A stretch of DNA of 64,000 bases from Patescibacteria group bacterium. Its GTDB lineage: Bacteria; Patescibacteriota; WWE3; JAUXAW01; JAYEID01. The stretch lies in contig JAYEID010000013.1 of NCBI GenBank assembly GCA_034659915.1, positions 10,627 through 74,626 of the forward strand, written 5' to 3'. The stretch's first letter is position 1. Every line of letters begins with the position of its first letter. The notes under the pieces were generated by a model, which saw only the letters and a program-made list of their open reading frames with translations, had not been told where the DNA came from and did not search any database. Positions 15,671 to 56,535 of the stretch are shown one piece after another. A program made the translations under genes and the position numbers.

Positions 15671-15760
15671 GCTTAGAGAAAAATTTGCTTTGGTCCGGGG
15701 TTAGTAGATAACTAATTGTAAGCAAATTTTTCTATGCTCTTGAAAACGGCACCCCCGCCA
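15671..15760. repeat. Diverged partial copy of the 172-nt element (3' module) downstream of ftsK
   Basis: GCTTAGAGAAAAATTTGCTTT...AAGCAAATTTTTCTATGCTCTTGAAAACGGCACCCCCGCC aligns with the 3' half of the 172-nt element plus the GGCACCCCCGCC boundary motif. It is flanked by ~45-nt direct repeats (15577-15625 and 15801-15850). Confidence 0.75.
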
Positions 15761-15867
15761 TGCTTACAGCGTGAAAGTATCTGTTCTTAATCTGATTAGC
15801 GTATTTTGATTTCCAATCCCAGCGAAGTGACGTAAATTTCGGGGGTCCGCCGGATTCGCGCGAGACT

Positions 15868-15985
15868 TTGACAGGCACCCCCCTTTCAGGGCCGCTCGCA
15901 CCGTTCAGCGTTGGAGAGTAGGAAAGAGAACCGCTCGCTTTGTGATCAAAACCCTTCATGGCGGGAGCCTGCCAAGTCCCTTTCC
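15868..15985. repeat. Intergenic repeat family B, copy 2 (upstream of rodZ-like)
   Basis: Shares GGCACCCC..CT.TCAGGGCCGCTCGC.CC ... CGCT.GCTTTGTGATCAAAA..CCCTTCA.GGCGGGAGCC.GCCAA with 53603-53760. Confidence 0.75.
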
Positions 15986-25794: not shown

Positions 25795-26559
25795 GTGAAG
25801 GTGTCTCTGTGGCTGGTATTTTTAATTGCCTTAGCTTTTTTGGGGGGTTCTGTGTTTGTTGCTTTGAGAAATAGGGGTATTGTTAAAGACGATAGTGCTG
25901 ACGATATAGTAGATAGTGTTTCATTAAGTTCTGAAATGAAACAAAAGAATTCTGAAAAGATAAAGCTTCCTGATCCGCGAACCTCAAGCGAAATTTCAGT
26001 AGAGGAAGCTATTGCAAAAAGGCGTTCGCGGCGAGAGTTTACTTCCCAACCATTGAGTGCGGGACAAATTTCCCAAATTCTTTGGGCAGTGCAAGGCATA
26101 ACTGGTGAAAGTTCGGGACACCGAGCAGCTCCTTCGGCTGGAGCTTTGTACCCTTTGGAAGTTTACATGGTGGCTAAGAGTGGTGGGGTTTCTGGTTACC
26201 AAGCCGGAGTTTATCATTACTTACCTCTTGAGCATTCAGTAGAAAAGATTGGGCAAAAAGACTTAGCTCGCGATTTGGCAGCGGCTGCTTTGGGCCAATC
26301 TTTTATTGCCGATGCTCCTATCTCGTTAGTCATAACAGCGAAATATTCGCGCGTGACTAATAAATATGGTGAGCGGGGAAGGCAGTATGTACATATGGAA
26401 GCAGGGCATGCTGCTCAGAATGTTTATTTACAAGTTGAGACTTTAGGTTTGGGTACTGTAGTGGTTGGTGCATTTGATGGTGAACGGATTGTTGAACTTC
26501 TCCAAATTCCTGCAGAACACGAACCTCTTTACGTTATGCCGATTGGTAATCTCAAATAA
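25795..26559 (+). CDS. SagB/ThcOx-type dehydrogenase (nitroreductase superfamily) with an N-terminal TM helix
   Basis: RRSRREFTSQPLSAGQISQILWAVQGITG...PSAGALYPLEVY...YVHMEAGHAAQNVYL match the SagB-type nitroreductase domain; GTG start. Confidence 0.7.
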   Translation: MKVSLWLVFLIALAFLGGSVFVALRNRGIVKDDSADDIVDSVSLSSEMKQKNSEKIKLPDPRTSSEISVEEAIAKRRSRREFTSQPLSAGQISQILWAVQGITGESSGHRAAPSAGALYPLEVYMVAKSGGVSGYQAGVYHYLPLEHSVEKIGQKDLARDLAAAALGQSFIADAPISLVITAKYSRVTNKYGERGRQYVHMEAGHAAQNVYLQVETLGLGTVVVGAFDGERIVELLQIPAEHEPLYVMPIGNLK

Positions 26560-27447: not shown

Positions 27448-27495
27448 GAAGGGTGTTGTTTCATTAATTTAGTGTATTGATATACCGAAGGGGGT

Positions 27496-27810: not shown

Positions 27811-27974
27811 AAGAGCTGCGGGGTGGTATACCATTAATTTAGTTTATTGATACACTAGCTGGGGAGCTACGAATTAGAAGTCTGGAGAAGATATGGATGT
27901 TTTATCATGGACGTTTTATTAAAGGATTTCTATTTTTGTAATAGGACACTAGGATCTTGTGGTAGTATTTCAGC

Positions 27975-28708: not shown

Positions 28709-29416
28709 ATGTCTGTTGTCGCACGAAGTTTTTATAAGGGAAAGACTACGAGTATTGCTAAAAACCTTTTGGGAAAGGTTTTGGTTCGCCACGTAAAGCC
28801 CACGGAGAGTGGGTCACGTGCCACCGAAGTTGAGAATGAAATAAACAAGAAAGGAATAATCGTAGAGACGGAGGCTTATTTAGGACCGGAGGATAAGGCT
28901 TGCCATTCCTTCAGAGGGAAGACAGAAAGAACGGAGGTAATGTTTGGACCGGCGGGGCATGCTTATGTTTATTTGGTTTACGGAATTCATTATATGTTTA
29001 ATATTGTGACTGAGGCTCCGGGAGAAGCTGTTTTGGTTCGAGCACTTGAACCCCTTGGTGGTGAATTTGGTAAACGCATTGCTTCCGGTCCGGGTAAACT
29101 GACAAAGTGGCTTAATATTGATAAAAGCTTCAACGGTTGGGATTTGACCAAGGGGGAGGGGTTGTGGATTTCCCATGAGCCGCGATCTTCGCCGTACCTG
29201 CTTGCCGGCAAGGCGGGTTCCCCAGCCCATGGGGCTGCGGCCAGAGAAGCCCCAGGGGCGTCTCTTGCGGCGGAGGATTTAGACCACGGAAATTTCGAAA
29301 TTTCTTCCGCAAAAAGAGTTGGTGTAGATTACGCCGAAGAGTGGTCGGAAAAACCGCTTCGTTTTTTCATCAAAGATAATCCCGCTGTTTCTACAGCGCA
29401 GGACTCCTTATGTTAA
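28709..29416 (+). CDS. 3-methyladenine DNA glycosylase (MPG/AAG family)
   Basis: VETEAYLGPEDKACHSFRGKTERTEVMFGPAGHAYVYLVYGIHYMFNIV matches the MPG family; carries the in-frame GC-rich repeat at 29191-29269. Confidence 0.8.
   Translation: MSVVARSFYKGKTTSIAKNLLGKVLVRHVKPTESGSRATEVENEINKKGIIVETEAYLGPEDKACHSFRGKTERTEVMFGPAGHAYVYLVYGIHYMFNIVTEAPGEAVLVRALEPLGGEFGKRIASGPGKLTKWLNIDKSFNGWDLTKGEGLWISHEPRSSPYLLAGKAGSPAHGAAAREAPGASLAAEDLDHGNFEISSAKRVGVDYAEEWSEKPLRFFIKDNPAVSTAQDSLC
29191..29269. repeat. GC-rich palindromic repeat element inserted in-frame in the MPG glycosylase gene (copy 2)
   Basis: Same element and same translated frame as copy 1 (LAGKAGSPAHGAAAREAPGAS). Confidence 0.85.
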
Positions 29417-36745: not shown

Positions 36746-39700
36746 ATGCGGCATTATTTTGACCAAAAAAGAAGTATCTTGCCCCTTCCAGATTTAACTT
36801 CGCACCAACAGGATTCTTTTTCCTGGTTTAAGGGAGAAGGAATTGCAGAAATATTGGAAGAAATTAATCCTATTGAGGACCAAACTGGGCGTGGGTGGAA
36901 GCTTTATTTTGAAGACCCAAGGTTTGAAGAACCGGAAGTTACTGCGCAGGAAGCAATGAAACGGGGTCTTGTTTACTCCTCTCCTTGGTACTTAACTGCA
37001 AGGTTGGTTGAAGAAGAAAGTGGGAAAGAAAAGAAAAAAGACATTTTTATGGGAGATTTTCCTGAAATGACGGAACGAGGGACTTTTATTATTAATGGTG
37101 TACAGCGCGTGGTTGTGGGACAGCTTACACGTTCGGAGGGCGTACATTTTTCAGGAGAGATCGACCCTTCCACAGGTAATAATCTAACTACAGTTAAGGT
37201 GATACCCAAAAACGGTGCTTGGTTAGAATTTTCAACTTATAAAAGAGATGAGCTTGTTGTTTCTATTAATAGAAGTCGGAAATTTCCGGTAACTACGCTA
37301 CTTCGCGCTTTTGGTGTGGGCAATGATAAGGAAATGCTAGAGATTTTTGATGACGTAGATACGGATCCAAACCGCAAGTTTATTCCCACAACATTGGAGG
37401 CTGACGAAACCCCCAATTATGAAGAAGCAATTTTGGAGTTGTTTAGAAAAGTTCGCCCTGGTGAGCGGGTGATTTTGAAAAATGCTGAAGATTTGTTTAC
37501 GCAGATGTTTAGGGATCCGCAACGGTTTGATTTGGGAGCTCCAGGACGGTTTTTGCTTAACCAGCGTTTGGGACTTGATTATCCGTTGGATAATGACCGC
37601 TATCGGCTTTTGACAAAAGAGGATCTTATTCAGATTGTTAGGAGAATGATTCGGTTAAACAATGGTGAGGGTGATTATATTGATACTGATCACCTTAGTA
37701 ATAGACGAGTGAAGAGAATTGGAGAGCTAGCCCAAGCCCAACTTCGGACTGGATTCTTGCAAATGTCTAGAAATATTCAGGGAAGGATGAGTATACAGCC
37801 TCGAGGTGAGTTTCCTTCTCCAAAAAAGCTTATTTCAGCTCGCCCGGTAAGTGCTCGGATTCTTAGTTTTTATGCTTCAAGCCAATTGGCTCAGTTCCAC
37901 GATCAAAATAATCCTTTAGCCTTTCTTTCTCACCTTAGACGCCTTACAGTAAAAGGTCCCGGTGGTCTTACTCAGCGGAGTGCTTCTATTTCTGTCCGGG
38001 ATGTGCACCCCTCGCATTATGGGAGAATTTGCCCCATTGAAACTCCGGAAGGTGCCAATATTGGTTTTACTACTCACATGGCTTTGTATGCAAGAATAAA
38101 CGAACTTGGTTTTCTGGAGGCACCTTACCGGAAAGTAATTGAAGATGAAAAAGGAATGAAGGTTACGGAAGAAATTGAATACCTACCTTCTTGGGAGGAA
38201 GAAGAACACTTTATTACTAGTGCATCTGTGGATTTAGATGAGAATGGCTATATTGTGTCTGAGCGCGTTCCGTTGCGAAAAGAAGGCAGATTTTTCTCTG
38301 GTTCCAGAGAACCAGTAGAGTATATTGATGTAACACCTACCCAGTTAGTTGGAGCTGCTGCTTCTAGTGTGCCTTTTTTGTCGCACGACGATCCCAACCG
38401 GGCCTTAATGGCTTCCAATATGTCACGTCAGGCTGTTCCTCTGATTAAGCCTGAGTCTCCCATTGTTGGTACTGGATTAGAGAAAGACCTAGCGTTAAAT
38501 TCAGGTGCTATGGTTATAGCTCAAAGTAAGGGAAAGGTGATTTATGTAGACTCCAAGCAAATTAAGGTGCAGACCAAAGACGGCATTGAAGAGTACGAAC
38601 TTACCAAATTTAAAAAATCAAATAACGACACCTGTCTAAATCAGGTGCCCCGGGTTTCTGTTGGTGATAAAGTTAAAAAAGGTGACCTTCTTGCAGATGG
38701 GTCCTCAACTGACTATGGGGATTTGGCTTTGGGTACTAATTTGAAAATTGCGTATGTTTCTTTTAAAGGGCTAAACTACGAAGATGCTTTTGTTGTTTCA
38801 AGACGGTTGGTGGAAGAAGATGTTCTTACCTCTATTCATATTTCAGAATACGAAACTTCAGTTTTAGAGACCAAGTTGGGACCAGAACAGGTAACTCGGG
38901 ATATCCCAAATGTTTCAGAGGAGGCACTTCGAAACTTGGGGGAGGACGGCATTGTTGCTGTTGGTTCAGAAGTTAAATCGGGAGATATTTTGGTAGGAAA
39001 GATTGCGCCTAAAGGAGAAAGTGAACTTTCGGCAGAAGAGAGGTTGCTCCGATCTATTTTTGGTGAAAGAGCGCGGGATGTCCGGGACAATTCGTTACGA
39101 ATGCCTCACGGGGATTATGGTACAGTGGTTGGAATAAAGGTATTAACTGATGAAAATTCTGATTTGGAGCCGGGGGTGTTGCGGAAAATTCAAGTTAGAG
39201 TTGCTCAAAGAAGGAAATTAGCTGTGGGCGATAAATTAGTTGGGAAACACGGTAATAAAGGTGTAGTTGCGGCAATTTGGCCTGAGGAAGACATGCCTTA
39301 TTTGGAGGATGGTACTCCTGTTGATATTATTATGAGTTCTTGCTCGGTTATTTCTCGAATGAATACTGGTCAATTACTTGAAACTCATCTTGGTGCAGCT
39401 GGAGCCAAATTAGGTAAGAGATATGCTGTACCTCCTTTTTCTAAGTTTGATCCTGAGCAACTTCGTGCGGAGCTTGAAGCTGCTGGTCTTTCCAAAGATG
39501 GTAAACAGGTCCTTTACGATGGTTTTACAGGGGAGGCGTTTGAGCAGAAGGTAGTGGTTGGTAACTCCTATATTTTGAAATTAGAGCATTTGGTTGAGGA
39601 TAAGATACACGCCCGATCTACCGGGCCTTATGCACTTATTACTCAGCAGCCACTGGGGGGTAAGGCTCAATTTGGTGGTCAACGGTTTGGTGAGATGGAA

Positions 39701-39910
39701 GTATGGGCTTTGGAGGCGTATAGTGCTGCGGATATGTTACACGAAATGTTGACTATTAAATCTGATGATATAGTTGGACGCGGCCGTGCGTATAAGGCAT
39801 TAATTCAGGGGCAAGAAGTTCCAGAACCAACATTGCCGGAATCGTTTAAGCTTTTGGTTCGCGAGCTAAATGGTTTGGGTTTGGATATTGAAGGAGTAAA
39901 CAAAGAATAA
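36746..39910 (+). CDS. rpoB: DNA-directed RNA polymerase subunit beta
   Basis: 1054 aa with canonical RpoB motifs throughout. Confidence 0.97.
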   Translation: MRHYFDQKRSILPLPDLTSHQQDSFSWFKGEGIAEILEEINPIEDQTGRGWKLYFEDPRFEEPEVTAQEAMKRGLVYSSPWYLTARLVEEESGKEKKKDIFMGDFPEMTERGTFIINGVQRVVVGQLTRSEGVHFSGEIDPSTGNNLTTVKVIPKNGAWLEFSTYKRDELVVSINRSRKFPVTTLLRAFGVGNDKEMLEIFDDVDTDPNRKFIPTTLEADETPNYEEAILELFRKVRPGERVILKNAEDLFTQMFRDPQRFDLGAPGRFLLNQRLGLDYPLDNDRYRLLTKEDLIQIVRRMIRLNNGEGDYIDTDHLSNRRVKRIGELAQAQLRTGFLQMSRNIQGRMSIQPRGEFPSPKKLISARPVSARILSFYASSQLAQFHDQNNPLAFLSHLRRLTVKGPGGLTQRSASISVRDVHPSHYGRICPIETPEGANIGFTTHMALYARINELGFLEAPYRKVIEDEKGMKVTEEIEYLPSWEEEEHFITSASVDLDENGYIVSERVPLRKEGRFFSGSREPVEYIDVTPTQLVGAAASSVPFLSHDDPNRALMASNMSRQAVPLIKPESPIVGTGLEKDLALNSGAMVIAQSKGKVIYVDSKQIKVQTKDGIEEYELTKFKKSNNDTCLNQVPRVSVGDKVKKGDLLADGSSTDYGDLALGTNLKIAYVSFKGLNYEDAFVVSRRLVEEDVLTSIHISEYETSVLETKLGPEQVTRDIPNVSEEALRNLGEDGIVAVGSEVKSGDILVGKIAPKGESELSAEERLLRSIFGERARDVRDNSLRMPHGDYGTVVGIKVLTDENSDLEPGVLRKIQVRVAQRRKLAVGDKLVGKHGNKGVVAAIWPEEDMPYLEDGTPVDIIMSSCSVISRMNTGQLLETHLGAAGAKLGKRYAVPPFSKFDPEQLRAELEAAGLSKDGKQVLYDGFTGEAFEQKVVVGNSYILKLEHLVEDKIHARSTGPYALITQQPLGGKAQFGGQRFGEMEVWALEAYSAADMLHEMLTIKSDDIVGRGRAYKALIQGQEVPEPTLPESFKLLVRELNGLGLDIEGVNKE

Positions 39911-39972
39911 CCTTGATGGCAGAACTTTAGCAGGCACCTCGCCCGTAGAAAGTTTCCGGTTGCGGAACGCGT

Positions 39973-40144
39973 CGGTGCTACACGCTTTCAAGAGCCCTTG
40001 TACTACATAGAGTACAGGGCAGGCCGTGCTTAGGATTGAGCGCGTTTACCCCGAACCCTGCGTGGTTTGGGGCTTAGAGAAAAATTTGCTTTTAGTTTAT
40101 TGTTAATTGATAGGTTATTGTGGGCAAATTTTTCTATGCTCTTG
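39973..40144. repeat. 172-nt structured intergenic repeat, copy 1 (between rpoB and rpoC)
   Basis: 100% identical to 50854-51025; internal hairpins (CTTGTACT/AGTACAGG; CCCCGAACC/GGTTTGGGG with a G-U pair) and a long-range inverted repeat TTAGAGAAAAATTTGC / GCAAATTTTTCTATGC. Confidence 0.9.
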
Positions 40145-40227
40145 GAAACGGTACCCCCGCCGCGCTCGACTCTGTTTATTAATCGTCCTGCTGATAGCTG
40201 ACTGCGGAAAGCTGTTAGCAGATTATT

Positions 40228-43200
40228 ATGTCTAACGACTTATCACAGTTCGAAAAATTTGATGCATTAAAAATAACTTTGGCTAGTCCCCAAGAGGTTC
40301 GTTCTTGGTCTCACGGGGAGGTTACAGAGCCAGAGACTATTAATTACCGTACTTTTAGGGCGGAGAAGGATGGTTTGTTTTGTGAGAAGATTTTTGGTCC
40401 AACAAAAGATTTTGAATGCTATTGCGGTAAATACAAAAAAATTCGCTTCAAAGGTGTTATTTGTGACAAATGTGGGGTTGAGGTTACCCGGAGAAGGGTA
40501 CGCCGGGAGCGAATGGGACATATTGAACTTGCTTCCCCTTGTGGTCACGTGTGGTTCTTTGGTACTGTGCCTTCTAAAATGGCTCGGCTGTTGGGCATGC
40601 GTTCTCGTGACCTTAAAGCTGTTATTTATTACTCAAAGTATTTAATTTTGAGTGTGGACGAAGATGAGCGAGAAAAAGTAGTTTCTGTTTTGGAAAAAGA
40701 TTTGGAGAAAGAAAAGGAGCAACTTCGCGAGGAAACTGAGGCAGAGATTGAAAAGATTGAAAACCAGATTGAGGAAAGAGCAGAAGAAGCTGATAGCGAG
40801 GAGGAAAGGGAGGAAATTCTCTTTTCGGGACGGAAAGAAATTGCACAACTTCGCGATGATTTGGTTACCAAGAAAAACAATTTAGAAAAGAAGTATGATG
40901 TTCTTTCAGCCCATTTAGAAGAAATTGAACCTCTTTCTGTTATTGGTGAGGCTGAGTATCGAAGTTTGCAAAAATATTTAGATAAGTTTTCGCAGGTTGG
41001 GATTGGAGCTCCGGGAGTTAAACGGGTATTAGAAGAGTTGAATACAGAAGAAATTGCCACGGAGCTGCGAGAAAAATTAAGAGAAACTAGTTCTAAGAGT
41101 AAAAGAAAGAAATACACTAGGCGCCTTAAAGCTGTTGAGCAATTTAATCGTTCTGATGTAGAACCAGCGTGGATGATTTTGGATGTTTTGCCTGTGATTC
41201 CTCCCGAACTGCGACCAATGGTCCAATTGGAGGGGGGACGATTTGCAACTTCTGATCTAAACGACCTTTACCGGGCTGTAATAAATCGAAATAATCGGTT
41301 GAAAGAATTGCTAGAATTAGGCGCGCCCGAACTTATTTTAAAAAATGAGCGGAGAATGCTTCAGGAAGCAGTGGATGCTCTAATTGATAGCAGCCGCTCG
41401 CGTCGGCGCCGCTACCGTGGGCAGAAAAAGCTCCGTTCTCTTTCAGATCTTATAAAAGGTAAACAGGGTCGGTTTAGAAGGAATTTACTTGGTAAGCGCG
41501 TAGATTATTCAGGGCGCTCAGTTATTGTAGTTGGTCCCGAGCTCAAAATTTCCGAGTGTGGTGTTCCAAAAGAAATGGCTTTAGAGCTTTTTAAGCCTAT
41601 GGTAATTAGGGAAGTATTGGCAGAGGGGCTAGCGCCTAATGTAAAGATGGCTAAGGAATTTATTAAACAGGAGCCACCTGAAGTGTGGGATATTTTGGAG
41701 CGGGTAGTTGAGGGTTGGCCTGTTCTTCTGAATCGGGCACCCACCTTGCATCGCTTGGGAATTCTTGCCTTTTATCCAAAACTTCTAGATGGTAAAGCGT
41801 TGAGTATTCACCCTTGTGTCTGTGCCGGTTATAATGCAGACTTTGACGGCGATCAAATGGCTGTTCATGTTCCTCTTTCTAAAGAAGCAAAAAGAGAAGC
41901 AGAAGAAATTATGCTTTCGACCAAAAACCTGCTTAAGCCAGCTTCGGGCAGCCCAGTAGTATCACCTTCCAAGGATATGGTCTTGGGTCTGTATTGGTTA
42001 ACAAGAGGACAGGGAGAGTTAGCTGAGGATAAGTTTTACTACTTAGAAGAGGCAAAAGTTGCTTGGGGAGAGGGCTACCTTAAGTTAAGACAGTTAACTA
42101 GGATTGAAATTGATGGAGTAGTTAGGGAAACTACTTTGGGTCGTGCTTTAGTAAATGAGAAAATTCCTAACAGCTTGGGATACGTAAACAAGGTAATGGA
42201 TAAAGATGTAGTCAAAGATGTTTTGAATCGTTGTTTGGAAGAGGAAGGTGAGGAAAGAACCGTTCAGTTGGTGGATGATTTGAAGTCTCTTGGATTTAAG
42301 TATGCTACTGAGTCAGGTATATCTATGGGTATCTTTGATACAGATGTACCAATTGATAAGCAAGAGAAGATTGAGGAGGCTGAGGAAAAAGTAGCAGAAA
42401 TTGAACACAACTTCCGGCGCGGGCTTTTGACTGAGGGTGAGATGCGGAGGCTTTCGCAGGAAATATGGCTGGATTTGACAAACGAATTAGAAGAGCTGAC
42501 CTGGAATTCGATGCGGAAGGAAAACCCAATGCGGATCTTGATTGAATCTGGTGCGCGCGGTTCTCCCGACCAGGTTAAGCAAATTTCAGGAATGAAGGGT
42601 TTGGTTGTTGATCCTACTGGTAAGATTGTAGAGTTGCCAACCAAATCTAACTATTTTGAAGGACTTTCCGAGTTTGAATATTTTGCAGGGGCTCGTGGTG
42701 CACGTAAAGGTTTGGCTGACACAGCGCTGAAGACGGCTGATGCTGGGTACCTCACACGGCGCCTCGTGGATGTTTGTCAGGAAGTTCTTGTTCGGGAAGA
42801 GGACTGTGGTACCCGAGCAGGTTTGGAAATTTCACGTGATGATGGTGAAGAGTTTGGTAGCTTTGCTTCAAGGTTAGAAGGGCGCGTAGCTGCAGACACA
42901 GTAAAAGATTCTGATGGTAATATTCTGGCTCGGCGTAATGACTTGATAGATAAGAGAAAGGCGGAAGAAATTGCAGAACAAGGACCCGATAGTGTGTTAC
43001 TGCGGTCCCCTATGACGTGTGAAACACCGTATGGTATCTGTCAAAAGTGCTATGGTTGGGATTTGGGCTGGCGCCAATTAGTGGAGTTGGGCTCACCCGT
43101 GGGTGTTATTGCTGCTCAATCAATTGGAGAGCCTGGCACTCAGCTGACACTACGAACTTTCCACTTTGGTGGTATTGCTAAAGAGGATATTACTCGTGGG

Positions 43201-43896
43201 CTCCCCCGTGTAACTCAACTATTTGAAGCACGCACCCCTAAAGTGTTGGCAGCAATGACGGAATTTGGTGGTAAGGTGAGTATTGAGGAGTTGGAAGAGG
43301 GGACTACTGTTGTTACTGTTACTTCTGAGGAGGGTGAGGCTGAGGAGTATCGAGTACCACCTACCCGAGAGGTTAGGGTTGAAGATGGTGATGTTGTTCC
43401 TGCTGGTTATGCCCTATCCTTGGGTTATCTTGATCCTGAAGAAGTTTTGGAAACGCTTGGACTTCGGGATGCTCAGAAATATATGCTTTCCGAAATCAAG
43501 AAGGTATACGCTTCCCAGGGTGTGGATTTGGATTCAAAACATGTTGAGGTTGTACTTCGACAAATGGTTTCTCAGGTTAAGATTGTTGAGGCTGGGGATA
43601 CGAACTTATTACCTGGGGAGGTTGTATCGCGGGAGCGCCTTGCTCAAGAAAACAAAAAAGCTCGCGAGGCAGATGGTAAGAAGGCAGAGGCGCAGCAATT
43701 GATTCTTGGTATTACTAAAGTCTCGTTGAATACTGAGTCGTGGCTTTCAGCAGCATCTTTCCAGGCAACGCGAAGAGTGCTTACTGATTCAGCAGTAAAG
43801 GGGGCTACTGATGTTTTACGAGGACTTAAGGAAAATGTAATTGTTGGGAAAAAAATTCCAATTGAGCCAGAAATTTATAAGGAAGAAAAAGAATAA
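40228..43896 (+). CDS. rpoC: DNA-directed RNA polymerase subunit beta'
   Basis: 1222 aa; zinc-binding CxxC...CxxC N-terminus, NADFDGD catalytic motif, and the trigger-loop and bridge-helix regions. Confidence 0.97.
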   Translation: MSNDLSQFEKFDALKITLASPQEVRSWSHGEVTEPETINYRTFRAEKDGLFCEKIFGPTKDFECYCGKYKKIRFKGVICDKCGVEVTRRRVRRERMGHIELASPCGHVWFFGTVPSKMARLLGMRSRDLKAVIYYSKYLILSVDEDEREKVVSVLEKDLEKEKEQLREETEAEIEKIENQIEERAEEADSEEEREEILFSGRKEIAQLRDDLVTKKNNLEKKYDVLSAHLEEIEPLSVIGEAEYRSLQKYLDKFSQVGIGAPGVKRVLEELNTEEIATELREKLRETSSKSKRKKYTRRLKAVEQFNRSDVEPAWMILDVLPVIPPELRPMVQLEGGRFATSDLNDLYRAVINRNNRLKELLELGAPELILKNERRMLQEAVDALIDSSRSRRRRYRGQKKLRSLSDLIKGKQGRFRRNLLGKRVDYSGRSVIVVGPELKISECGVPKEMALELFKPMVIREVLAEGLAPNVKMAKEFIKQEPPEVWDILERVVEGWPVLLNRAPTLHRLGILAFYPKLLDGKALSIHPCVCAGYNADFDGDQMAVHVPLSKEAKREAEEIMLSTKNLLKPASGSPVVSPSKDMVLGLYWLTRGQGELAEDKFYYLEEAKVAWGEGYLKLRQLTRIEIDGVVRETTLGRALVNEKIPNSLGYVNKVMDKDVVKDVLNRCLEEEGEERTVQLVDDLKSLGFKYATESGISMGIFDTDVPIDKQEKIEEAEEKVAEIEHNFRRGLLTEGEMRRLSQEIWLDLTNELEELTWNSMRKENPMRILIESGARGSPDQVKQISGMKGLVVDPTGKIVELPTKSNYFEGLSEFEYFAGARGARKGLADTALKTADAGYLTRRLVDVCQEVLVREEDCGTRAGLEISRDDGEEFGSFASRLEGRVAADTVKDSDGNILARRNDLIDKRKAEEIAEQGPDSVLLRSPMTCETPYGICQKCYGWDLGWRQLVELGSPVGVIAAQSIGEPGTQLTLRTFHFGGIAKEDITRGLPRVTQLFEARTPKVLAAMTEFGGKVSIEELEEGTTVVTVTSEEGEAEEYRVPPTREVRVEDGDVVPAGYALSLGYLDPEEVLETLGLRDAQKYMLSEIKKVYASQGVDLDSKHVEVVLRQMVSQVKIVEAGDTNLLPGEVVSRERLAQENKKAREADGKKAEAQQLILGITKVSLNTESWLSAASFQATRRVLTDSAVKGATDVLRGLKENVIVGKKIPIEPEIYKEEKE

Positions 43897-43968
43897 AGTA
43901 GTATAAAGGATTTTGGAGAGGTACTTTTTCTTACGTACCCTTGCTAGGGTGCGTCTTTTTATGCTTTT

Positions 43969-43993
43969 TGTTATAATATAGGTAGTAACTACC
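43969..43993 (+). promoter_or_regulatory. Extended -10 promoter candidate (TGtTATAAT) plus palindrome GGTAGTAACTACC upstream of rpsL
   Basis: TG at 43969-70, TATAAT at 43972-43977; palindrome at 43981-43993; rpsL ATG at 44040. Confidence 0.4.
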
Positions 43994-44039
43994 AAATGAT
44001 AGGTTTAGATGTTTTTTATTGGCTTAAATTTGTCAAGCA

Positions 44040-44498
44040 ATGCCAACTATTCAACAACTTGTCCGAAAAGGACGCAAAAAACCAAAAAAGGAAAAGAGCA
44101 CTCCAGCGTTGGGGGATATTTATTCTTCTCTTAACAGAGAAAGGAAGGAGTTAGAGGCACCTTTTAAGAGGGGTGTAGTTTTAGACGTTCGAACAAGGGC
44201 TCCTAAGAAACCTAACTCTGCGCTTAGGAAAGTTGCTCGAGTACGCCTTTCAAATGGAAAAGAGGTCACTGCTTACATTCCGGGTGAGGGGCATAACATT
44301 ACAGAGCACGCTGTGGTTTTGGTTCGGGGTGGGCGTGTTCAGGACCTTCCTGGTATTAAATATACAATTGTTCGGGGGCATTATGATGTAGCGGGGGTGG
44401 AAGGGCGAGTAACATCGCGCTCTAAGTATGGAACAAAGGAAAGCGGGGAGATTGGTGGCGCAACTGTGACGGGGGGAGAAGAGTCTGCGGAAGTATGA
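44040..44498 (+). CDS. rpsL: 30S ribosomal protein S12 (with ~14-aa internal insertion and C-terminal extension)
   Basis: [13 protein letters not shown]...[55 protein letters not shown]. Confidence 0.95.
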
Positions 44499-44592
44499 TT
44501 TAACTAGATTGTTATCTTGCTAGCCAGTTAGCCAGCTATCTTGTTAAGTGTTAAGGAGTTAAAGGATATACAATAGATATACGGTAGATATG

Positions 44593-44670
44593 CAATTGTT
44601 CATCTATTGTTTATCGCGATTCTGATCGCAGTTTAACGGCAACTTCTGAGTTGCATTTTACGAGTGTTTA
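44593..44670 (+). ncRNA. Conserved intercistronic structured element (rpsL-rpsG), copy 1
   Basis: CAATTGT...CGCGATTCTGATCGCAGTTTAACG shared with 56461-56535; hairpin GCGAT-tctg-ATCGC and a second hairpin GCAACT-tctg-AGTTGC whose stem covaries with GCAGTT-tccg-AACTGC in copy 2. Confidence 0.5.
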
Positions 44671-44731
44671 GTGAGTTTATCTAGTAGTTAAGTTATGATT
44701 ATTTTATCGATTACCTTTTTGGCTTAAAGTC

Positions 44732-45196
44732 ATGCGTGGAAAAAAAGCAAAAAAGCGAGAAAAAGAAGAAGATTTGCTCTATAATTCTGAGCTTGTGACT
44801 CGGCTAATTAATCAGGTTATGGAAAGTGGTAAGAAAAATGTAGCAGAGGAAATAGTTTATGGGGCACTAGAACGCCTTTCTGAGGATAGGAACGAGGCGC
44901 TCAACCTTTTGGAGCAAGCTGTAAGTAATGTTGTTCCTGATGAGGAAGTTCGTTCTCGGCGGGTGGGAGGTGCAACCTATCAAGTTCCCATTCCTCTAAA
45001 GCGGGATCGGGCTGTGACCTTGGCAATTCGTTGGATAGTTGATGCAGCAAAGAAAAGGAGCGGCGAGCCGATGGTGGTGAGTCTTACTTATGAGCTCCAG
45101 GATGCTCTTCGCGGTGAAGGAACGGCAGTAAAGAAGCGAGAGCAAGTACACCGTACTGCGGACGCAAACCGTGCTTTTGCCCATTTTCGATGGTAG
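44732..45196 (+). CDS. rpsG: 30S ribosomal protein S7
   Basis: S7 family sequence; str-operon synteny. Confidence 0.95.
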   Translation: MRGKKAKKREKEEDLLYNSELVTRLINQVMESGKKNVAEEIVYGALERLSEDRNEALNLLEQAVSNVVPDEEVRSRRVGGATYQVPIPLKRDRAVTLAIRWIVDAAKKRSGEPMVVSLTYELQDALRGEGTAVKKREQVHRTADANRAFAHFRW

Positions 45197-45322
45197 TTTT
45201 CTTTTGATAAGGAACTCTGCTGCGGTGGGCAATCTTGCGCTAAAGCCTTTTCTACAGTATAATTCCTGTATACAAGGGGTCAGGTCTCCTCTATAAATAT
45301 CTGGGAGGTGTCTCTTATCAAG

Positions 45323-45350
45323 AAAACCTTTGCAAGGTTTTTATTTTTTT
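45323..45350 (+). terminator. Weak hairpin and T-run (attenuator or terminator candidate) between rpsG and fusA
   Basis: AAAACCTT-tgc-AAGGTTTT followed by TATTTTTTT. Confidence 0.3.
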
Positions 45351-45432
45351 GCTTATATTGCAAGCACGAGGTACTTTTGCCTGTTGGGTATGGTTCCAGA
45401 AAAACTGTAGGTTATTATTTTTTATTATTATT

Positions 45433-47532
45433 ATGTCTGAACAAGAAGAATACCCGTTAGAGAAAATTAGAAATATTGGGATTATTGCCCACATTGATGC
45501 TGGTAAAACCACTGCTACTGAACGTATTCTTTATTACAGCGGCAAAACTTATAAGATTGGTGACATTGATGAGGGTACTACGCAAATGGATTGGATGGAG
45601 CAGGAACGCGAGCGCGGTATTACAATCCAATCTGCTGCTACTACTACCTTTTGGACTCCTCTTCGTTTTGAGGGAGCGGAGGAACATACCCACCGGATAA
45701 ATATCATTGATACTCCTGGCCACGTAGATTTTACAGCTGAAGTAGAGCGTTCTTTGCGTGTTCTTGATGGCGCTGTGGTTGTTTTTGACGGTGTGGCTGG
45801 TGTTGAACCGCAGTCAGAAACAGTTTGGCGCCAAGCTGATAAGTATGAAGTGCCGCGAGTTTGTTTTATTAATAAAATGGATAAAACTGGGGCAGACTTT
45901 TACAATTCAGTAGAAACTATTAAGGATCGACTTGGTGCTCGAACTGCTATAATTCAGCTCCCAATTGGATCTGAAAGTGATTTTGAAGGTGTGGTAGATT
46001 TAATTGAGATGCGTGCTCTTTATTGGGAAGGTGGTCTAGGAGAGAAGGTTAGATACGGTGAAATCCCTTCGGGTTTAGAGGAAAGAGCTAAGGAAAAGAG
46101 AAATGATCTTTTGGAAATGGCGGCGGAGCAAAGTGAACAGCTTTTTGAACATTATTTGGAAAATCAAGATCTTACTCCTGATGAGATTAGGAATGGTCTT
46201 CGAATAGGTACGTTAAATGGTGATTTTGTTCCTGTAATGTGCGGAAGCGCGCTTCGTAATCGCGGTATTCAACCTCTGCTTGATTCTATTGTTGATTATC
46301 TCCCCTCCCCTTTAGATGTTCCACCTATTACTGGTGTTAATCCAGAAACAAATGAAGAAGAAGTTCGGGAGGCAGATCCGAATGGGCCTTTTGCTGCATT
46401 GGCGTTTAAGATCCAAACTGATCCCTATGTTGGTCGGCTTTGCTATTTTCGTGTTTATTCTGGAACGTTGGATGCTGGTGACGAGGTTTTGAATGCTTCT
46501 AAGGATGAGAAAGAACGGATGGGAAGGATTTTATTAATGCACGCAAATACCCGCGAGGAAATTGATAAAACATCGGCGGGGAAGATTGGCGCAACTGTAG
46601 GTCTTAAGAATACCTTTACGGGTGATACTCTTTGCGATAAGGAAAGCCCTATTGAGTTAGAGAAAATATCGTTTCCGGAGCCAGTTATCTCAGTAGCTAT
46701 TGAACCAAAGACCCGTGCAGATCAGGAAAAGTTGGGTAAAGCACTTAGGCGTCTTTCTGAGGAAGACCCTACTTTTGAAATTAGAGCAAACAAAGAGACG
46801 GGAGAAACTTTAATTTATGGTATGGGTGAGTTGCATTTAGAGATTTTGGTTGAACGGATGAAGCGTGAGTTTGGGGTTGAAGCTAAGATTGGTAAACCGA
46901 GGGTTGCGTATCGAGAGACTATTCGTAACACTGCAGAAGCTGAGGGTGAGTATATTCGCCAATCTGGAGGTCGCGGGCAGTATGGGCATTGTTTTCTTCG
47001 TTTGGAACCTTTGGCACAAGGAGAGGGTTTTGAGTTTGAGAATGAAATTAAGGGCGGTACAATTCCGCGCGAATTTATTCCTGCTGTAGAAAAAGGTGCA
47101 GTTGAAGCGCGAGATAAAGGTATTTTGGCAGGGTACCCTATGGTTGACATTAAAGTTACTGTTTTTGATGGGAGTTATCACGAAGTTGATTCTTCTGAGG
47201 CAGCTTATAAGATTGCAGCTTCTCAAGCCTTCCAGAAAGCTGCTAAGCAAGCAAGGCCTGTTCTTTTAGAACCTATAATGCAGGTAGAAGTTGTAACTCC
47301 TGATGAGTATTTAGGTTCAGTGGTAAGCGATCTTTCTTCTAAACGAGCGAAGATCAGGAAAACATGGGTTCAAGGTAACTCTCGTCGTATTTCAGCTGAG
47401 GTTCCCTTAGCTGAAATGTTTGGATATGCGACGCGGATTCGTTCCTTGACAAAGGGGCGCGCAACCTTTACAATGGAGCCTAGCCATTATGAGGAAGTTC
47501 CTCAAAATGTAGCTGAAGAATTAATTAGCTAA
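45433..47532 (+). CDS. fusA: Elongation factor G
   Basis: [27 protein letters not shown]...; 700 aa; the ORF-track start at 45349 is an upstream extension. Confidence 0.96.
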
Positions 47533-47690
47533 CATATCTGATAGTTGTAAGTTGGTGTTTTGTTGTTGGTTAGGCTAGCAACAAGAAACTAACTTTTGCT
47601 TGTTTTTATTTGTTTAGATTGTTAACTGCAGTGGTCTGGTACATCCAAGACGCGCGGATGCACTAGCTCGCAGCAGTGAAAGGAGGCCGT

Positions 47691-48875
47691 ATGGCTAAAG
47701 AAAAGTTTGAGAGAACTAAACCCCATGTTAATGTGGGTGCTATTGGTCACGTTGACCATGGCAAAACTACTCTTCTTGCTGCGATGACTAAAGTTCTTAG
47801 CGAGAAGGGTTTATCGGATGAGGTGCCCTTTGAGGATATTGATAAAGCTCCTGAGGAACAAGAAAGGGGTATCACAATTGCTATTTCTCATGTGGAGTAT
47901 GAAACTGAGAATAGGCACTATGCCCACATTGATTGTCCTGGTCACGCAGACTATGTGAAGAATATGATTACTGGTGCTGCTCAGATGGATGGGGCTATTC
48001 TAGTAGTGGCTGCGGACGATGGTCCAATGCCTCAGACTAGGGAGCATATCCTTCTTGCGCGTCAGGTGAATGTACCGGCAATGGTTGTTTTCTTGAATAA
48101 GACTGATTTAGTTGAGGATGAAGAACTTCTAGATTACGTAGAAGAAGAAGTAAGGGATCTTCTTAACCAGTATGAATTTCCTGGGGACAAAATTCCTGTT
48201 ATTCGCGGTTCTGCTGAACAAGCCTTGCAGGGCGATGAAAAGGCCAAGGAGCAGGTTTATAAACTTGTTCAAGCTTTGGATGATTATATTCCCGAGCCTG
48301 AGCGAGAACTTGATAAGCCATTTCTAATGCCTGTGGAGGACGTATTTTCCATTGAAGGCCGTGGTACTGTTGCAACTGGAAGGATTGAACGCGGAACTGT
48401 TGATTTGAAGGACGAAGTTGAGATTATAGGTATTAAAGAAACAGAGGAAAGTGTTGTTACTGGTATTGAGATGTTTAGGAAGCAGATGGATAGTGCTCAA
48501 GCCGGCGACAACGTTGGTATTCTTCTTCGAGGTATTAATAAGGACGATATTGAGCGTGGGCAGGTTCTGGCCGAGCCGGGAACTGTTACTCCTCACACTG
48601 AGTTTGAAGCAGAGGTTTATATTCTTACTAAGGAAGAGGGCGGGCGTCATACTCCCTTCTTTTCAGGATACCGTCCACAGTTTTACATTCGGACTACGGA
48701 TGTGACTGGTGAGGTGGAACTGCCTGAGGATGTGGAAATGGTAATGCCTGGCGACAATGTAAAAATGAAGGTAAAACTAATTACTCCGATTGCTATGGAA
48801 GAGAACTTGCGTTTTGCTATTCGTGAGGGTGGAAAAACTGTAGGAGCAGGTGTTGTTTCGAAAGTAATTAAATAA
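47691..48875 (+). CDS. tuf: Elongation factor Tu
   Basis: [28 protein letters not shown]...; AAGGAGG RBS at 47679-47685. Confidence 0.97.
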
Positions 48876-50535: not shown

Positions 50536-50832
50536 ATGAAAAAGTACCGAGAGATTTTGAAAAAACCTATTGTAACTGAGAAGACTTTGCGGTTGGCGCG
50601 TGAAAATAATGACTATACTTTTGAGGTTGCATTAAAAGCTTCCAAGGGAGCTATTAAAGAAGCTGTTGAGGAAATGTTTAATGTTGAGGTAGAGGATGTT
50701 CGAACTTTGAAAAGAGCTGCTAAGAATAAAAGGGTTTGGGGAACGTGGAGATACACGCGAAAAGGTCCGTGGAAAAAAGCAGTTGTCAAATTGGCAGAAG
50801 GTGACGAAATCGAAGGTTTTGGGATTGAATAG
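50536..50832 (+). CDS. rplW: 50S ribosomal protein L23
   Basis: L23 family, 98 aa; synteny. Confidence 0.92.
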   Translation: MKKYREILKKPIVTEKTLRLARENNDYTFEVALKASKGAIKEAVEEMFNVEVEDVRTLKRAAKNKRVWGTWRYTRKGPWKKAVVKLAEGDEIEGFGIE

Positions 50833-50853
50833 TAGGTAGTATTGTGGATGCGC

Positions 50854-51025
50854 CGGTGCTACACGCTTTCAAGAGCCCTTGTACTACATAGAGTACAGGG
50901 CAGGCCGTGCTTAGGATTGAGCGCGTTTACCCCGAACCCTGCGTGGTTTGGGGCTTAGAGAAAAATTTGCTTTTAGTTTATTGTTAATTGATAGGTTATT
51001 GTGGGCAAATTTTTCTATGCTCTTG
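50854..51025. repeat. 172-nt structured intergenic repeat, copy 2 (between rplW and rplB)
   Basis: Identical to 39973-40144. Confidence 0.9.
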
Positions 51026-51185
51026 ATCCCCGCCGCATCTTCGAGTTTGGGGGGTTACAACTTGAAAGATTCCGTTCTAATTCGCGTAAATTCGTTTTAG
51101 ATTAGTGTGAATTCGTGTGGGTTCCGGAAACAATGCGATCACATTTCTTTTATCGATTAACTGTCAAAGCTGTCTAGTTGATATT

Positions 51186-52010
51186 ATGAAAAAGTATAAA
51201 CCGACATCCCCGGGGCGACGGCACCGTGTGGATATAGATAAAAGTAAATTATCTAAAAAAGGACCGGAAAAGAAGCTTTCTTCTGGTGTTAAAGAGAAGG
51301 CTGGTCGTTCAGGTGGTAAAATTTCTGTTCGCCACAAAGGGAGTCGGGTAAAAAGGAAATTTAGGAATATTGATTTTAAAAGGAAGAAAAGAAGTATTCC
51401 CGGTGAGGTAGTTTCTTTGGAATATGATCCTAATCGGAGTGCGCATATTGCACTAATAAAATACGCGGATGGTGAAAAAAATTATATAATTGCACCTCAT
51501 GGCTTAGAAGTCGGAGAAAAAATTGTGGCAGGGGAAGATGTGGAGGTTAAAAGGGGTAATGCTATGCCTCTAGCTAATGTTCCTTTAGGAGAAGAGGTAC
51601 ACAATGTGGAGCTCCATCCTGGCGGTGGGGGGCAAATGGTTAGATCTGCTGGTACCAGTGCTCGGGTTATTGCCAAACCTGGTAAATATGTGCACTTGAA
51701 AATGCCTTCTGGTGAGGTCCGAAAGGTTTTGTCTTCTTGTTATGCTACCGTAGGTGGTGTGTCCAATCCTGATTGGGAAAATAAGAATTGGGGTAAGGCT
51801 GGTCGTAAGCGCCACTTAGGTATTAGACCAACGGTAAGGGGTTCGGCTATGGCTCCGGATGCTCACCCTCATGGTGGTGGAGAAGGAAGGACTGGGGAAG
51901 GGATGCCTTCTCCTAAGACTCCTTGGGGAAAGAAAACTCGTGGTAAGAAAACCCGAAAACGAAAACATACGGATAAGTACATAGTAAAAGATAGGCGGGA
52001 GAAGAAATAA
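51186..52010 (+). CDS. rplB: 50S ribosomal protein L2
   Basis: MKKYKPTSPGRRHRV...; GGGGQ...HPHGGGEG motifs; the ORF-track start at 51117 is an extension. Confidence 0.96.
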   Translation: MKKYKPTSPGRRHRVDIDKSKLSKKGPEKKLSSGVKEKAGRSGGKISVRHKGSRVKRKFRNIDFKRKKRSIPGEVVSLEYDPNRSAHIALIKYADGEKNYIIAPHGLEVGEKIVAGEDVEVKRGNAMPLANVPLGEEVHNVELHPGGGGQMVRSAGTSARVIAKPGKYVHLKMPSGEVRKVLSSCYATVGGVSNPDWENKNWGKAGRKRHLGIRPTVRGSAMAPDAHPHGGGEGRTGEGMPSPKTPWGKKTRGKKTRKRKHTDKYIVKDRREKK

Positions 52011-52068
52011 GCATTTTTAAAAGCACCAAACATCAAATACCAAGTTCCAGAAGTTTGTTATTTGAAGT

Positions 52069-52096
52069 TTGGAGTTTGGAATTTAAAATTTAGTAT
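52069..52096 (+). promoter_or_regulatory. Conserved promoter-like module TTGGAG-16nt-TAGTAT upstream of rpsS
   Basis: Same architecture and spacer-sequence family as modules upstream of dnaK (8-35) and rplV (52447-52474). Confidence 0.4.
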
Positions 52097-52113
52097 TTAG
52101 AATTTAAAAAATT

Positions 52114-52407: not shown

Positions 52408-52446
52408 GGGAGAATTTCGAAATTCGAATCTCGAAATCCAAAATAT

Positions 52447-52474
52447 TTGGAGCTTAGGATTTAGAATTTATGAT
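52447..52474 (+). promoter_or_regulatory. Conserved promoter-like module TTGGAG-16nt-TATGAT upstream of rplV
   Basis: ATTTGGAGCTTAGG.ATTTAGAATTTA is shared almost verbatim with positions 6-29 upstream of dnaK. Confidence 0.4.
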
Positions 52475-52484
52475 TTAAATTATT

Positions 52485-53591: not shown

Positions 53592-53602
53592 TATGAAAAG
53601 AC

Positions 53603-53760
53603 TTTGGCGGGCACCCCGCCTCTCAGGGCCGCTCGCGCCTGTCGAAGTTTAAGTCTGATTTGGTTAAGCGCTTGCTTTGTGATCAAAAGTCGAATGGTGT
53701 CAGTGAATAATTGTAGCGACTTTTGATCAAAACCCTTCAAGGCGGGAGCCAGCCAACGTC
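53603..53760. repeat. Intergenic repeat family B, copy 1 (between rpsC and rplP), with a nested hairpin insertion
   Basis: Same modules as 15868-15985, plus a ~45-nt insert forming TGATCAAAAGTCG...CGACTTTTGATCA (53680-53730), flanked by direct repeat GATCAAAA. Confidence 0.75.
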
Positions 53761-53850
53761 TTGTTAGATTCTTAGTTTGGAGTTTTTGATTTGTTGTTTA
53801 TTTGAAATTTGTAATTTGTTCCGCCGGCCGGCGGATTGGAATTATTAACT

Positions 53851-56460: not shown

Positions 56461-56535
56461 CAATTGTATTACTATCGTTTTACGCGATTCTGATCGCAGT
56501 TTAACGCAGTTTCCGAACTGCATTTAACGTGAGCG
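56461..56535 (+). ncRNA. Conserved intercistronic structured element (rpsN-rpsH), copy 2
   Basis: See copy 1; compensatory base changes keep the second hairpin. Confidence 0.5.

Follow-up and report, generated by a model that had tools for sequence, protein, structure and literature searches.

A family of palindromic intercistronic repeats in a narrow clade of Saccharibacteria-like bacteria, with probable gene conversion between two members

The repeat in the rpoB-rpoC spacer

We analyzed a 64,000-nt stretch of contig JAYEID010000013.1 from a Patescibacteria group bacterium (assembly GCA_034659915.1; hereafter the window), in which a 172-nt block occurs twice. One copy, at 39973-40144, lies in the spacer between rpoB (36746-39910) and rpoC (40228-43896), and the other, at 50854-51025, lies in the spacer between rplW (50536-50832) and rplB (51117-52010, with a profile match that begins at residue 24). 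A reading of the window from its sequence alone had reported both copies and their locations, and we confirmed that the blocks are identical at 172/172 positions (blastn) and that the flanking genes are assigned as stated (NCBIfam). The identity is beyond chance, and a repeat search lengthens the match to 176 nt at 99% identity. The host operons had also been described as otherwise tightly packed, which does not hold, since many spacers of the window contain other repeats. We suggest that the block very probably belongs to a lineage-specific superfamily of palindromic repeats that are bounded by terminal inverted repeats (TIRs), and forms the inner part of one of its members.

The element in the rpoB-rpoC spacer, named c1, belongs to the long form of subfamily A and occupies 39966-40168 on the + strand, where it matches the full covariance model of the family (R1, see below) with 103 bits and E = 1e-25. 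The sequence-only reading had therefore found a real element but only its interior, and the TIRs had been missed. These TIRs, GCGYCGG..ACRCGYTTTCAAGAGC upstream and GCTCTTGRAAACGGYACCCCCGCCGC downstream, are imperfect and close the c1 structure. In the minimum-free-energy fold, the 5' TIR (GCGTCGGTGCTACACGCTTTCAAGAGC, 39969-39995, +) forms the 5' arm of a closing helix, P1, and pairs with the 3' TIR (GCTCTTGGAAACGGTACCCCCGCCGCGC, 40138-40165, +), which forms the 3' arm. The enclosed region starts with a variable module (39996-40072, +) composed of three hairpins at 39996-40019, 40025-40044, and 40049-40072, and is followed by the hairpin P3 (40076-40137, +), whose arms AGAGAAAAATTTGC (40076-40089) and GCAAATTTTTCTAT (40124-40137) enclose an AT-rich loop of 34 nt. 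The 12-nt arms of P3 are 100% complementary, and a G.A mismatch is the second pair from the base. The three hairpins and the long-range inverted repeat described earlier are thus all present in this fold, which has an energy of -85.1 kcal/mol (z = -5.6); the opposite strand folds nearly as well. The string CCCCGCCGC, which had been noticed 3' of both copies, is indeed there, and is a piece of the 3' TIR, 10 nt of which are lost in the second copy.

Architecture and covariation of the repeat family

An exact 21-mer from the conserved hairpin occurs in seven copies in a related metagenome-assembled genome, CAYXRZ01 (GCA_964467235.1; "the MAG" in the comparisons below). It also occurs once by chance in locus L008 (Chitinophagaceae), where the surrounding sequence is unrelated. 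A profile, and then the covariance model R1, were built from nine short-form copies, and searches with nhmmer and with the covariance model revealed more than 20 members across the window and the loci of four related metagenome-assembled genomes (five genomes in total). Five members lie in the window, two of them, c4 and c5, being diverged copies additional to the three known earlier. Further copies, for which a whole-genome search had been proposed, are present both here and in the loci of relatives.

The elements are about 150-200 nt long, and every copy has terminal repeats and a three-way fold. P1, the closing helix of at least 20 bp, is formed by the two ends, which are imperfect TIRs of about 28 nt in every copy. 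P2 is a small GC hairpin, and P3 is an AT-rich hairpin of 12-14 bp; its loop measures about 33 nt, and a G.A mismatch close to the base is conserved. Only 0-2 bases are unpaired at the junction. The modules vary among members: P1 is present in all of them, P2 is either one hairpin or three, and P3 is deleted in c5. The three-hairpin state is that of c1 and c2, in which the variable module stands in for the single P2 hairpin of all other members; it includes a 43-nt extra block compared with the short-form copies, and its blastn match is found in c1 and c2 only.

At least six sequence subfamilies have this layout in common, while their P1 or P3 sequences are entirely different. Subfamily A comprises c1, c2, c3, most copies of the MAG, and L048 8788-8943. 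Subfamily B is found in the rpoC-rpsL spacer of L040 and L006, and subfamily C at rpsL-rpsG and pilT-pilC. Subfamily D is represented by L005 5372-5543 with P1 arms GCCGCTTCCCCAAAAC / GTTTTGGTAAGCGGC; this locus was considered as a solo P3 hairpin without terminal repeats, which we rejected because the covariance model shows a full element with a different P1 sequence. Subfamily E comprises window 53601-53762 and window 15865-15980, which are described below as c4 and c5, and subfamily F lies after ftsK in L048, L050, and L052 and also occurs in L001, with P3 arms AGATCGAAAGCCG / CGGCTTTCGATCT. On inspection, A, C, D, E, F, and the L040 copy of B have G.A as the second pair from the P3 base. 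One C copy has G.G instead, the L006 copy of B has U.G, and the pair adjoining this mismatch covaries.

When we examined the pairing over 18 sense-strand members, 90.9% of cells were paired compared with 81.2% in shuffles. Compensatory (double) changes were observed in 27/40 pairs, compared with 9.8 ± 2.0 in shuffled alignments (0/500) and 6-11 in slid controls. Across the family, the covarying pairs comprise 14/20 of P1 and 10/14 of P3. Structural covariation in a covariance model that includes relatives, which had been named as a check on a structured RNA, is therefore found. The comparison with Rfam that had been proposed beside it returned no family: no match reached the gathering score anywhere in the window, and none was obtained at E <= 5 for the two element regions.

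The elements contain no conserved open reading frame, and no tRNA is present. A start-like RTG is followed by frames that differ or are very short, depending on the subfamily, and a peptide conserved from the RTG of the P3/P1 junction was rejected because the frames differ and that of subfamily D stops after 3 codons. Neither a sigma-70-like promoter nor an intrinsic terminator consensus is found in or beside c1, c2, and c3, and a promoter or terminator role was rejected on this basis. The 3' arm of A-type elements contains TGCTCTTGAAAAC (window 40136-40149, and all A-type copies), which resembles the rrn antitermination boxA (TGCTCTTTAACAA). This string is base-paired in P1 and absent from the other subfamilies, and the resemblance is probably a coincidence.

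Other members in the window

The copy in the rplW-rplB spacer, c2, covers 50847-51041 (+, 73.7 bits), and its interior at 50854-51025 is the one identical with c1. Its 3' TIR lacks the 10 nt mentioned above (GAAACGGTAC is reduced to AT), and its outer 5' end is also unlike that of c1. It is followed by a tail (51037-51135, +) that ends in a subfamily-C-like 3' arm (GGGTTCCGGAAAC) and is homologous to the tail of the MAG copy L003 in the mreB-mreC spacer (local alignment 44, shuffle mean 16.5 ± 2.3, 0/500), and this tail shows no similarity to the flanks of c1 and L006. Two A-type copies of the MAG (L003 4781-5040 and L005 2495-2710) have extended flanks in common and adjoin single C-type terminal arms, CACATTTCTGAAAAG upstream in L005 and GGTTTCAGAAACGGTGCACC downstream in L003. 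This arrangement suggests nested or composite elements, with the tail of c2 being of the same type.

The copy after ftsK (13323-15605), c3, had been placed at 15671-15760; it is real, and its extent is 15608-15766 (+, 167.7 bits). It is a short form of subfamily A, with P1, one GC hairpin P2, and P3, and begins 3 nt past the ftsK stop codon. The true 3' end of ftsK (15574-15609, +) is duplicated 230 nt downstream beyond c3 at 83% identity, forming a pseudo-3' end with a stop codon (15804-15839, +) between c3 and c5. The order at this site is thus the ftsK end, c3, 40 nt, the degenerate 36-nt copy of the ftsK end, and c5. In L048, L050, and L052, an E/F-type element is positioned directly after the ftsK end. 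The duplication around c3 and the arrangement in these relatives suggest that recombination may have brought in c3 along with a replacement ftsK end, one junction being homologous and the other illegitimate; cut-and-paste insertion would be the less likely course. The element c5 itself (15865-15980, +, subfamily E) retains P1 and P2 in the covariance-model alignment, while its P3 is collapsed to TGA/TCA. Its ends match c4 and the L048/L050 elements, and the F-type elements positioned after ftsK in relatives are likely its orthologs.

The last member, c4, is a diverged copy of subfamily E in the rpsC-rplP spacer (53601-53762, +), which a local search matches over the full model with 30.1 bits and E = 2.5e-8. 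Its architecture is that of the other members, with 16-nt P3 arms (TGATCAAAAGTCG / CGACTTTTGATCA) of 94% complementarity; the rpsC-rplP spacer of the MAG holds an A-type copy (L004). An inverted repeat at 26230-26317 was rejected as a member and sits within a nitroreductase gene.

Distribution, conservation, and orientation

Members are found at rpoB-rpoC, rpoC-rpsL, rpsL-rpsG, rplW-rplB, rpsC-rplP, ftsK-rodZ-like, mreB-mreC, pilB-pilT-pilC, and other sites, and the neighboring genes are co-directional. RpoC identity places the window and L040 as sisters (89.6%), followed by the MAG (79%) and the outgroups L042 and L043 (68%). The rpoB-rpoC spacer is filled, with homologous flanks, in the window (317 nt) and the MAG, and is without an element in L040 (112 nt) and L042 (21 nt). 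The rpoC-rpsL spacer is filled at the same junction in L040 and the MAG and empty in the window. The rplW-rplB spacer is filled in the window and without an element in L046 (21 nt), L042 (35 nt), and L040, which has a different repeat there. Finally, the spacer downstream of ftsK is filled in all five clade genomes and empty in the outgroup L053 (64 nt). The presence/absence polymorphism that had been proposed as a sign of mobility is therefore seen at all four orthologous spacers, and since occupancy differs among relatives, element sites have been gained and lost between them.

A metagenome scan with a gapped exact P3 pattern gave 30 loci, none of them related (an unrelated MITE-like family, that is, one resembling miniature inverted-repeat transposable elements, and chance matches), and a viral scan with the exact P3 pattern gave 0 matches. 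Because these scans gave no further members, we conclude that the family is confined to a narrow clade of Saccharibacteria-like bacteria of the Candidate Phyla Radiation (CPR). Plasmid and phage blastn searches gave no match.

We then compared the divergence of the elements with that of the neighboring genes. Four-fold site identity is 33-37% for ftsK, 36.5% for rpoC between the window and the MAG, and 31% for the 3' part of rpoB, with no rise beside the spacer; four-fold sites are saturated between most clade members. The orthologous copies c1 and L006 6103-6262 lie in rpoB-rpoC spacers with 82% identity, which rises to about 95% across P3 plus the 3' P1 arm. Identity is 77% between the B copies at rpoC-rpsL and 88-91% between A-type copies of the window and those of the MAG, and three species have an invariant F-type core, GAAGCGCTCACTCAGAGATCGAAAGCCG...CGGCTTTCGATCTATG. 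Since identities of 77-95% are retained where synonymous sites are saturated, these alignments indicate that resident copies are under purifying selection or held similar by some exchange process. A recent transfer of the rpoB-rpoC region between lineages was rejected because the four-fold sites beside the spacer are saturated. The copy c3 is 88-91% identical to the A copies of the MAG, yet its identity to the element that occupies this site in the sister genome L047 is only 72%, a hint at movement or exchange of A-type sequences as well.

At 16/17 independent sites, the element has the same direction as both flanking genes (assigned by Pfam/NCBIfam; two-sided binomial, about 3e-4). The sequence-only reading had favored the + strand from a G-U pair in one c1 hairpin, and this argument does not generalize, as G-U pairs and A-C mismatches number 17 and 17 overall.

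Origin of the identity between c1 and c2

The tract of identity between c1 and c2 stops inside the terminal repeats, and the outer ends of c2 differ and are truncated. The 3' flank of c1 is homologous to that of the rpoB-rpoC copy of the MAG, L006 (alignment score 57, shuffle mean 12.2 ± 2.2), as the tail of c2 is to L003, and cross-comparisons between the two flank lineages were not significant. The alignments therefore indicate that c1 and c2 are both old members, which occupy separate sites and have flanks of different lineages. Based on the end of the identity within the TIRs, the truncated 3' TIR of c2, and the different flanks, we consider it probable that the interior of c2 was recently overwritten by that of c1 through gene conversion, and not that c2 arrived by a new transposition. 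The shared interior has the P3 loop type of the rpoB-rpoC lineage (L006 type), and c1 would therefore be the donor.

Here, we need to consider that the data are contigs of metagenome-assembled genomes, and that a short-read assembler could have threaded one interior through two members with conserved arms in common, so that the 100% identity would be an artifact. The identity tract is bounded by family-conserved segments, where graph tangles arise, and the flanks of c2 are of another lineage than its interior, both of which fit such an error. However, an independent Logan contig, L039, corresponds to window 40115-47987 with 0 mismatches over 7873 nt. The contig begins exactly 30 nt (k-1) short of where the exact repeat ends, the behavior expected of a k=31 graph at a genuine repeat boundary, and this argues against an artifact. 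The 30-mer at 40115-40144 is c1-type and needs two different successors in the reads, so that the c1-type interior, or at least its last 30 nt, is present at a second locus. In addition, the 5' boundary of the identity is not at a family-conserved k-mer, since c3 and the MAG copies differ there. We therefore regard an assembly error as very unlikely.

Interpretation of the family

The sequence-only reading had proposed either a recent MITE-like transposition or a strongly constrained cis-RNA. The first proposal is right as to a dispersed, TIR-bounded, non-coding family with polymorphic sites, and not as to a fresh transposition as the cause of the identity. For the second, the covariation, the 16:1 orientation, and the 77-95% conservation agree with it, and neither the pairing nor the fold energy carries a strand signal. 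Taken as a whole, we favor, with some reserve, a family resembling the REP, BOX, and Correia repeats that forms a co-transcribed intercistronic RNA structure and in which c2 was converted by c1. For the function at the RNA level taken separately, which rests on analogy, we would put the chance at somewhat below even.

By analogy with the Correia, ERIC, BIME, and BOX repeats (PMC3049150, PMC3184786, PMC10969869), the elements would be co-transcribed with their host operons and would be retained because the stable structure that they form acts in cis on the polycistronic mRNA. First, the P1 helix may be the target of an RNase III-type double-strand RNase or a barrier to exonucleases, and may thereby uncouple or tune the neighboring cistrons. 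Second, P3 and the junction may serve as a specific recognition feature. Third, the family may have spread by recombination, and perhaps also by a transposase, and the conserved arms may have provided the homology for the conversion of c2 by c1. A bolder form of the proposal, which we put forward only tentatively, is that these are host-selected, sense-oriented intercistronic RNA modules of CPR bacteria, each of them a three-way junction whose conserved hairpin contains the G.A mismatch. Each would be read by a specific RNase or RNA-binding protein and would set the relative expression of the cistrons around it in essential operons. These modules would be spread and homogenized without a transposase, by gene conversion and by homology-facilitated illegitimate recombination after DNA uptake.

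Several observations weigh against an RNA structure as the object of selection. First, the sample is small, with 5 metagenome-assembled genomes and about 200 kb of sequence, metagenome assemblies throughout, and the covariation alignment was fitted to the model. The covariation of P1 is equally expected from co-evolving terminal inverted repeats of a transposon, and palindromes acting as DNA would show the same pairing pattern. Second, the ratio of G-U pairs to A-C mismatches is 15:4 in P3, which favors the + strand, and 2:12 in P1, which is the opposite, and the sense RNA is the more stable strand in just 7/16 copies. Third, the A copy of L001, between secG-like and solute-binding-protein genes, is antisense and lies beside a sense F-type copy, and the orientation bias may track replication rather than transcription, since the genes are mostly co-directional. 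Fourth, the 88-91% similarity of A-type copies may reflect exchange by natural transformation and not selection. Finally, as to the mechanism of copying, no transposase is found in the 64-kb window or among the Pfam-checked open reading frames of the relatives' loci. Target-site duplications, which had been suggested as a test, are not visible at the copy boundaries: there is no short direct repeat at the helix ends, the ends are fuzzy, and in sister genomes a filled spacer cannot be aligned with an empty one. The sole flanking duplication is the 36 nt of ftsK around c3.

The alternative that survives best is a purely selfish MITE, with c2 as a fresh transposase-mediated insertion of c1 and no host function. 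The TIRs, the small size, the lack of an open reading frame, and the many dispersed copies are all expected of it, as are the occupancy polymorphism between relatives and the break of an independent assembly at the element; covariation of the TIRs would follow when both ends must fit one transposase. A new insertion should, however, have complete ends, whereas the identity stops within the TIRs and the 3' TIR of c2 is truncated, and the flank lineages of c1 and c2 are different and anciently conserved. Neither a target-site duplication nor a transposase is seen within the scope given above, and the several TIR sequences among the subfamilies would require several transposases in genomes of about 1 Mb. 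Dead parasite copies should not retain 77-95% identity between orthologs at saturated neutral divergence, nor does the 16:1 orientation bias fit them. We therefore regard a purely selfish element as unlikely.

A role at the DNA level is still less probable. The element would be a single-strand or cruciform hairpin read by an HUH/RAYT-type or site-specific recombinase, or by a nucleoid or replication factor, with replication setting its orientation. Both strands fold equally well, G-U pairs and A-C mismatches are balanced, and the strong orientation bias occurs within genomes of mostly co-directional genes. The conserved hairpin contains a conserved mismatch, as is typical of single-strand DNA recombinase hairpins; conserved mismatched hairpins of IS200/IS605, REP/RAYT, and attC are read by such enzymes. 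No gene for such an enzyme is present in the window or among the Pfam-checked frames of the relatives' loci, however, and the elements are bounded by true terminal inverted repeats, which IS200/IS605 derivatives and REPs lack. Inspection shows none of the attC core motifs (RYYYAAC / GTTRRRY), and the G.A mismatch stands on the sense strand in nearly all subfamilies with an adjoining pair that covaries, which is more typical of RNA motifs.

Independent small RNA genes or known cis-regulators (ribosomal-protein leaders, attenuators, ribozymes, or Nus boxA) are scarcely credible: although the fold is highly stable, copies lie in the ribosomal-protein and rpoBC operons known for leaders and attenuators, and the A-type 3' arm resembles rrn boxA, there is no Rfam match even at E <= 5 and neither a promoter nor a terminator consensus in or beside c1, c2, and c3, the occurrence at mreB/mreC, at the pil genes, and after ftsK is incompatible with a leader specific to one operon, the boxA-like string is paired within P1 and is not conserved across the subfamilies, and the 0-2 unpaired junction bases are too few for a hammerhead-type core.

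If the elements act on mRNA, as our preferred reading would allow, they would give a first handle on the post-transcriptional control of operons in a phylum with almost no known regulatory RNA. If they are selfish, they show how tiny genomes that lack visible transposases can retain repeats and homogenize them through gene conversion. CPR/Saccharibacteria genomes of about 1 Mb are usually called streamlined, and here the rpoBC, str, and S10 spacers are loaded with structured repeats. The repeats also break short-read assemblies at rpoB/rpoC and at the ribosomal-protein markers that are used in CPR phylogeny and binning.

Other repeats in the window and its relatives

A leader with a hairpin-like form (CTGCTGATAGCTGACTGCGGAAAGCTGTTAGCAGATTATT, 40188-40227, +) lies directly 5' of the rpoC start codon, outside c1, and is conserved along with the repeat, with 77% identity to its ortholog in the MAG (alignment score 57, shuffle mean 12.2 ± 2.2) between genomes whose synonymous sites are saturated. 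The same kind of leader (..GCTGATAGCTGACTGCGGAAAGCTGTTAGCAGATTATT-ATG) recurs just 5' of start codons, at window 40188-40227 (rpoC), at 51140-51165 (rplB), and at about 2160-2215 of L006 (rpsL of the MAG).

Other repeat families are also present in the window. A GC-rich palindromic repeat of about 80 nt occurs at 18912-18990 and 29191-29269, in frame within two protein-coding genes. The copy in alaS adds about 29 amino acids (LPHLPAGKAGSPAPGAAAKEAPGASPALG), which are absent from the AlaRS of L048 and shorter in that of L052, and the second host gene is a methylpurine-DNA glycosylase gene; these in-frame repeats resemble the insertions of Rickettsia palindromic elements. A spacer repeat family (CAATTGTTCATCTATTGTTTATCGCGATTCTGATCGCAGTTTAACG-like) is found at 44593-44638 (rpsL-rpsG) and 56461-56506, and also in the rpoC-rpsL and rplW-rplB spacers of L040. 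Short AT-rich repeats of TATTTGGAGCTTAGGTATTAGAATTTAGTATTTAAA-like (5-40, 52066-52101, and 52444-52479) and GGGTGTTGTTTCATTAATTTAGTGTATTGATATAC-like (27451-27485 and 27821-27855) sequence lie in spacers upstream of genes and may be shared expression signals.

In the outgroup loci, unrelated palindromic elements bounded by TIRs (L043 3334-3520, 15234-15552, and 15892-16220; L046 3574-3840; e.g. CTAAAGATGTCACA...TGTGACATCTTTAG) occupy the same rpoB-rpoC and ribosomal-protein spacers, so that structured repeats have colonized these spacers more than once in the wider lineage. The metagenome scan also returned an unrelated palindromic repeat, GTGTTTGGACGCAAAGTTGCCCAGATGCAAGGCGCAGAAAAATTTGTAACCGGAGCAACC...GGTTGTGAGGATTGCAAATTTTTCTGCAACGCCGCAG.., on many environmental contigs (L009-L038, e.g. 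L010 1-190 and L033 2430-2620).

Comparison with known repeat families

We found no description of such repeats or of MITEs in Saccharibacteria/Patescibacteria in the searchable literature, and the family described here is a previously undescribed one of a known kind, the small interspersed palindromic repeats. In integron attC sites, structure is conserved over sequence, with unpaired bases, strand specificity, and a single bulged hairpin. The present elements are similar in their conserved structure, their mismatched bases, their position between co-directional genes, and their nearly uniform direction. Unlike attC, they have a three-way junction, no R'/R'' cores (RYYYAAC...GTTRRRY) at the inspected element ends, and no integrase, and they occupy essential housekeeping operons and not cassettes.

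Prokaryotic MITEs have been defined (PMC3049150) and reviewed (PMC10969869). The family resembles them in its TIRs, in being small, non-coding, and highly base-paired, and in having dispersed copies whose presence is polymorphic. It differs from them in its strong sense orientation and in the apparent purifying selection on resident copies, and neither a target-site duplication nor a partner transposase was found in the window and the relatives' loci. Moreover, the sole copying event that can be reconstructed resembles gene conversion.

Among the enterobacterial repeats, BIMEs are attenuators or stabilizers, and the effect of ERIC on transcript stability depends on orientation (PMC3049150, PMC3184786). 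The present elements are like ERIC/IRU and REP/BIME in being palindromic repeats within operons, some of them conserved in place, and an action on mRNA may be a further likeness by analogy. REP is a GC-rich single hairpin of 20-40 nt that is mobilized by RAYT, and ERIC is a simple imperfect palindrome of 127 nt, whereas the elements found here are three-way junctions of 150-200 nt with TIRs and a conserved AT-rich hairpin, and no HUH gene is present among the Pfam-checked open reading frames. The Correia repeats of Neisseria (CREE/NEMIS), 100-155 nt long with inverted repeats of about 26 bp, have a long terminal stem that is cut by RNase III (PMC3049150, PMC3184786). Like them, our elements are intergenic and bounded by inverted repeats, and by analogy they may also be co-transcribed and cut by RNase III in P1. 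In contrast to the TA target duplications, promoter elements, and IHF sites of Correia, there is no TA duplication at the ends and no promoter-like site.

Finally, the BOX elements of S. pneumoniae and S. suis (boxA-boxB(n)-boxC) are intergenic, are predicted to be extensively structured when co-transcribed, and are thought to affect neighboring genes (PMC3049150). Both families are modular small interspersed repeats in which the terminal modules pair and the internal modules vary in number. In this comparison, P1 corresponds to boxA/boxC of BOX, P2 is present as one hairpin or three, and P3 is deletable, as in c5. The hosts belong to different phyla, and no sequence resemblance was noticed, no direct comparison having been made. 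While the ends of BOX are linked to an insertion sequence (ISSpn2), no insertion sequence occurs here in the window or among the Pfam-checked frames of the relatives' loci. Unlike BOX, the family described here has orthologous copies that are demonstrably conserved across saturated synonymous divergence.

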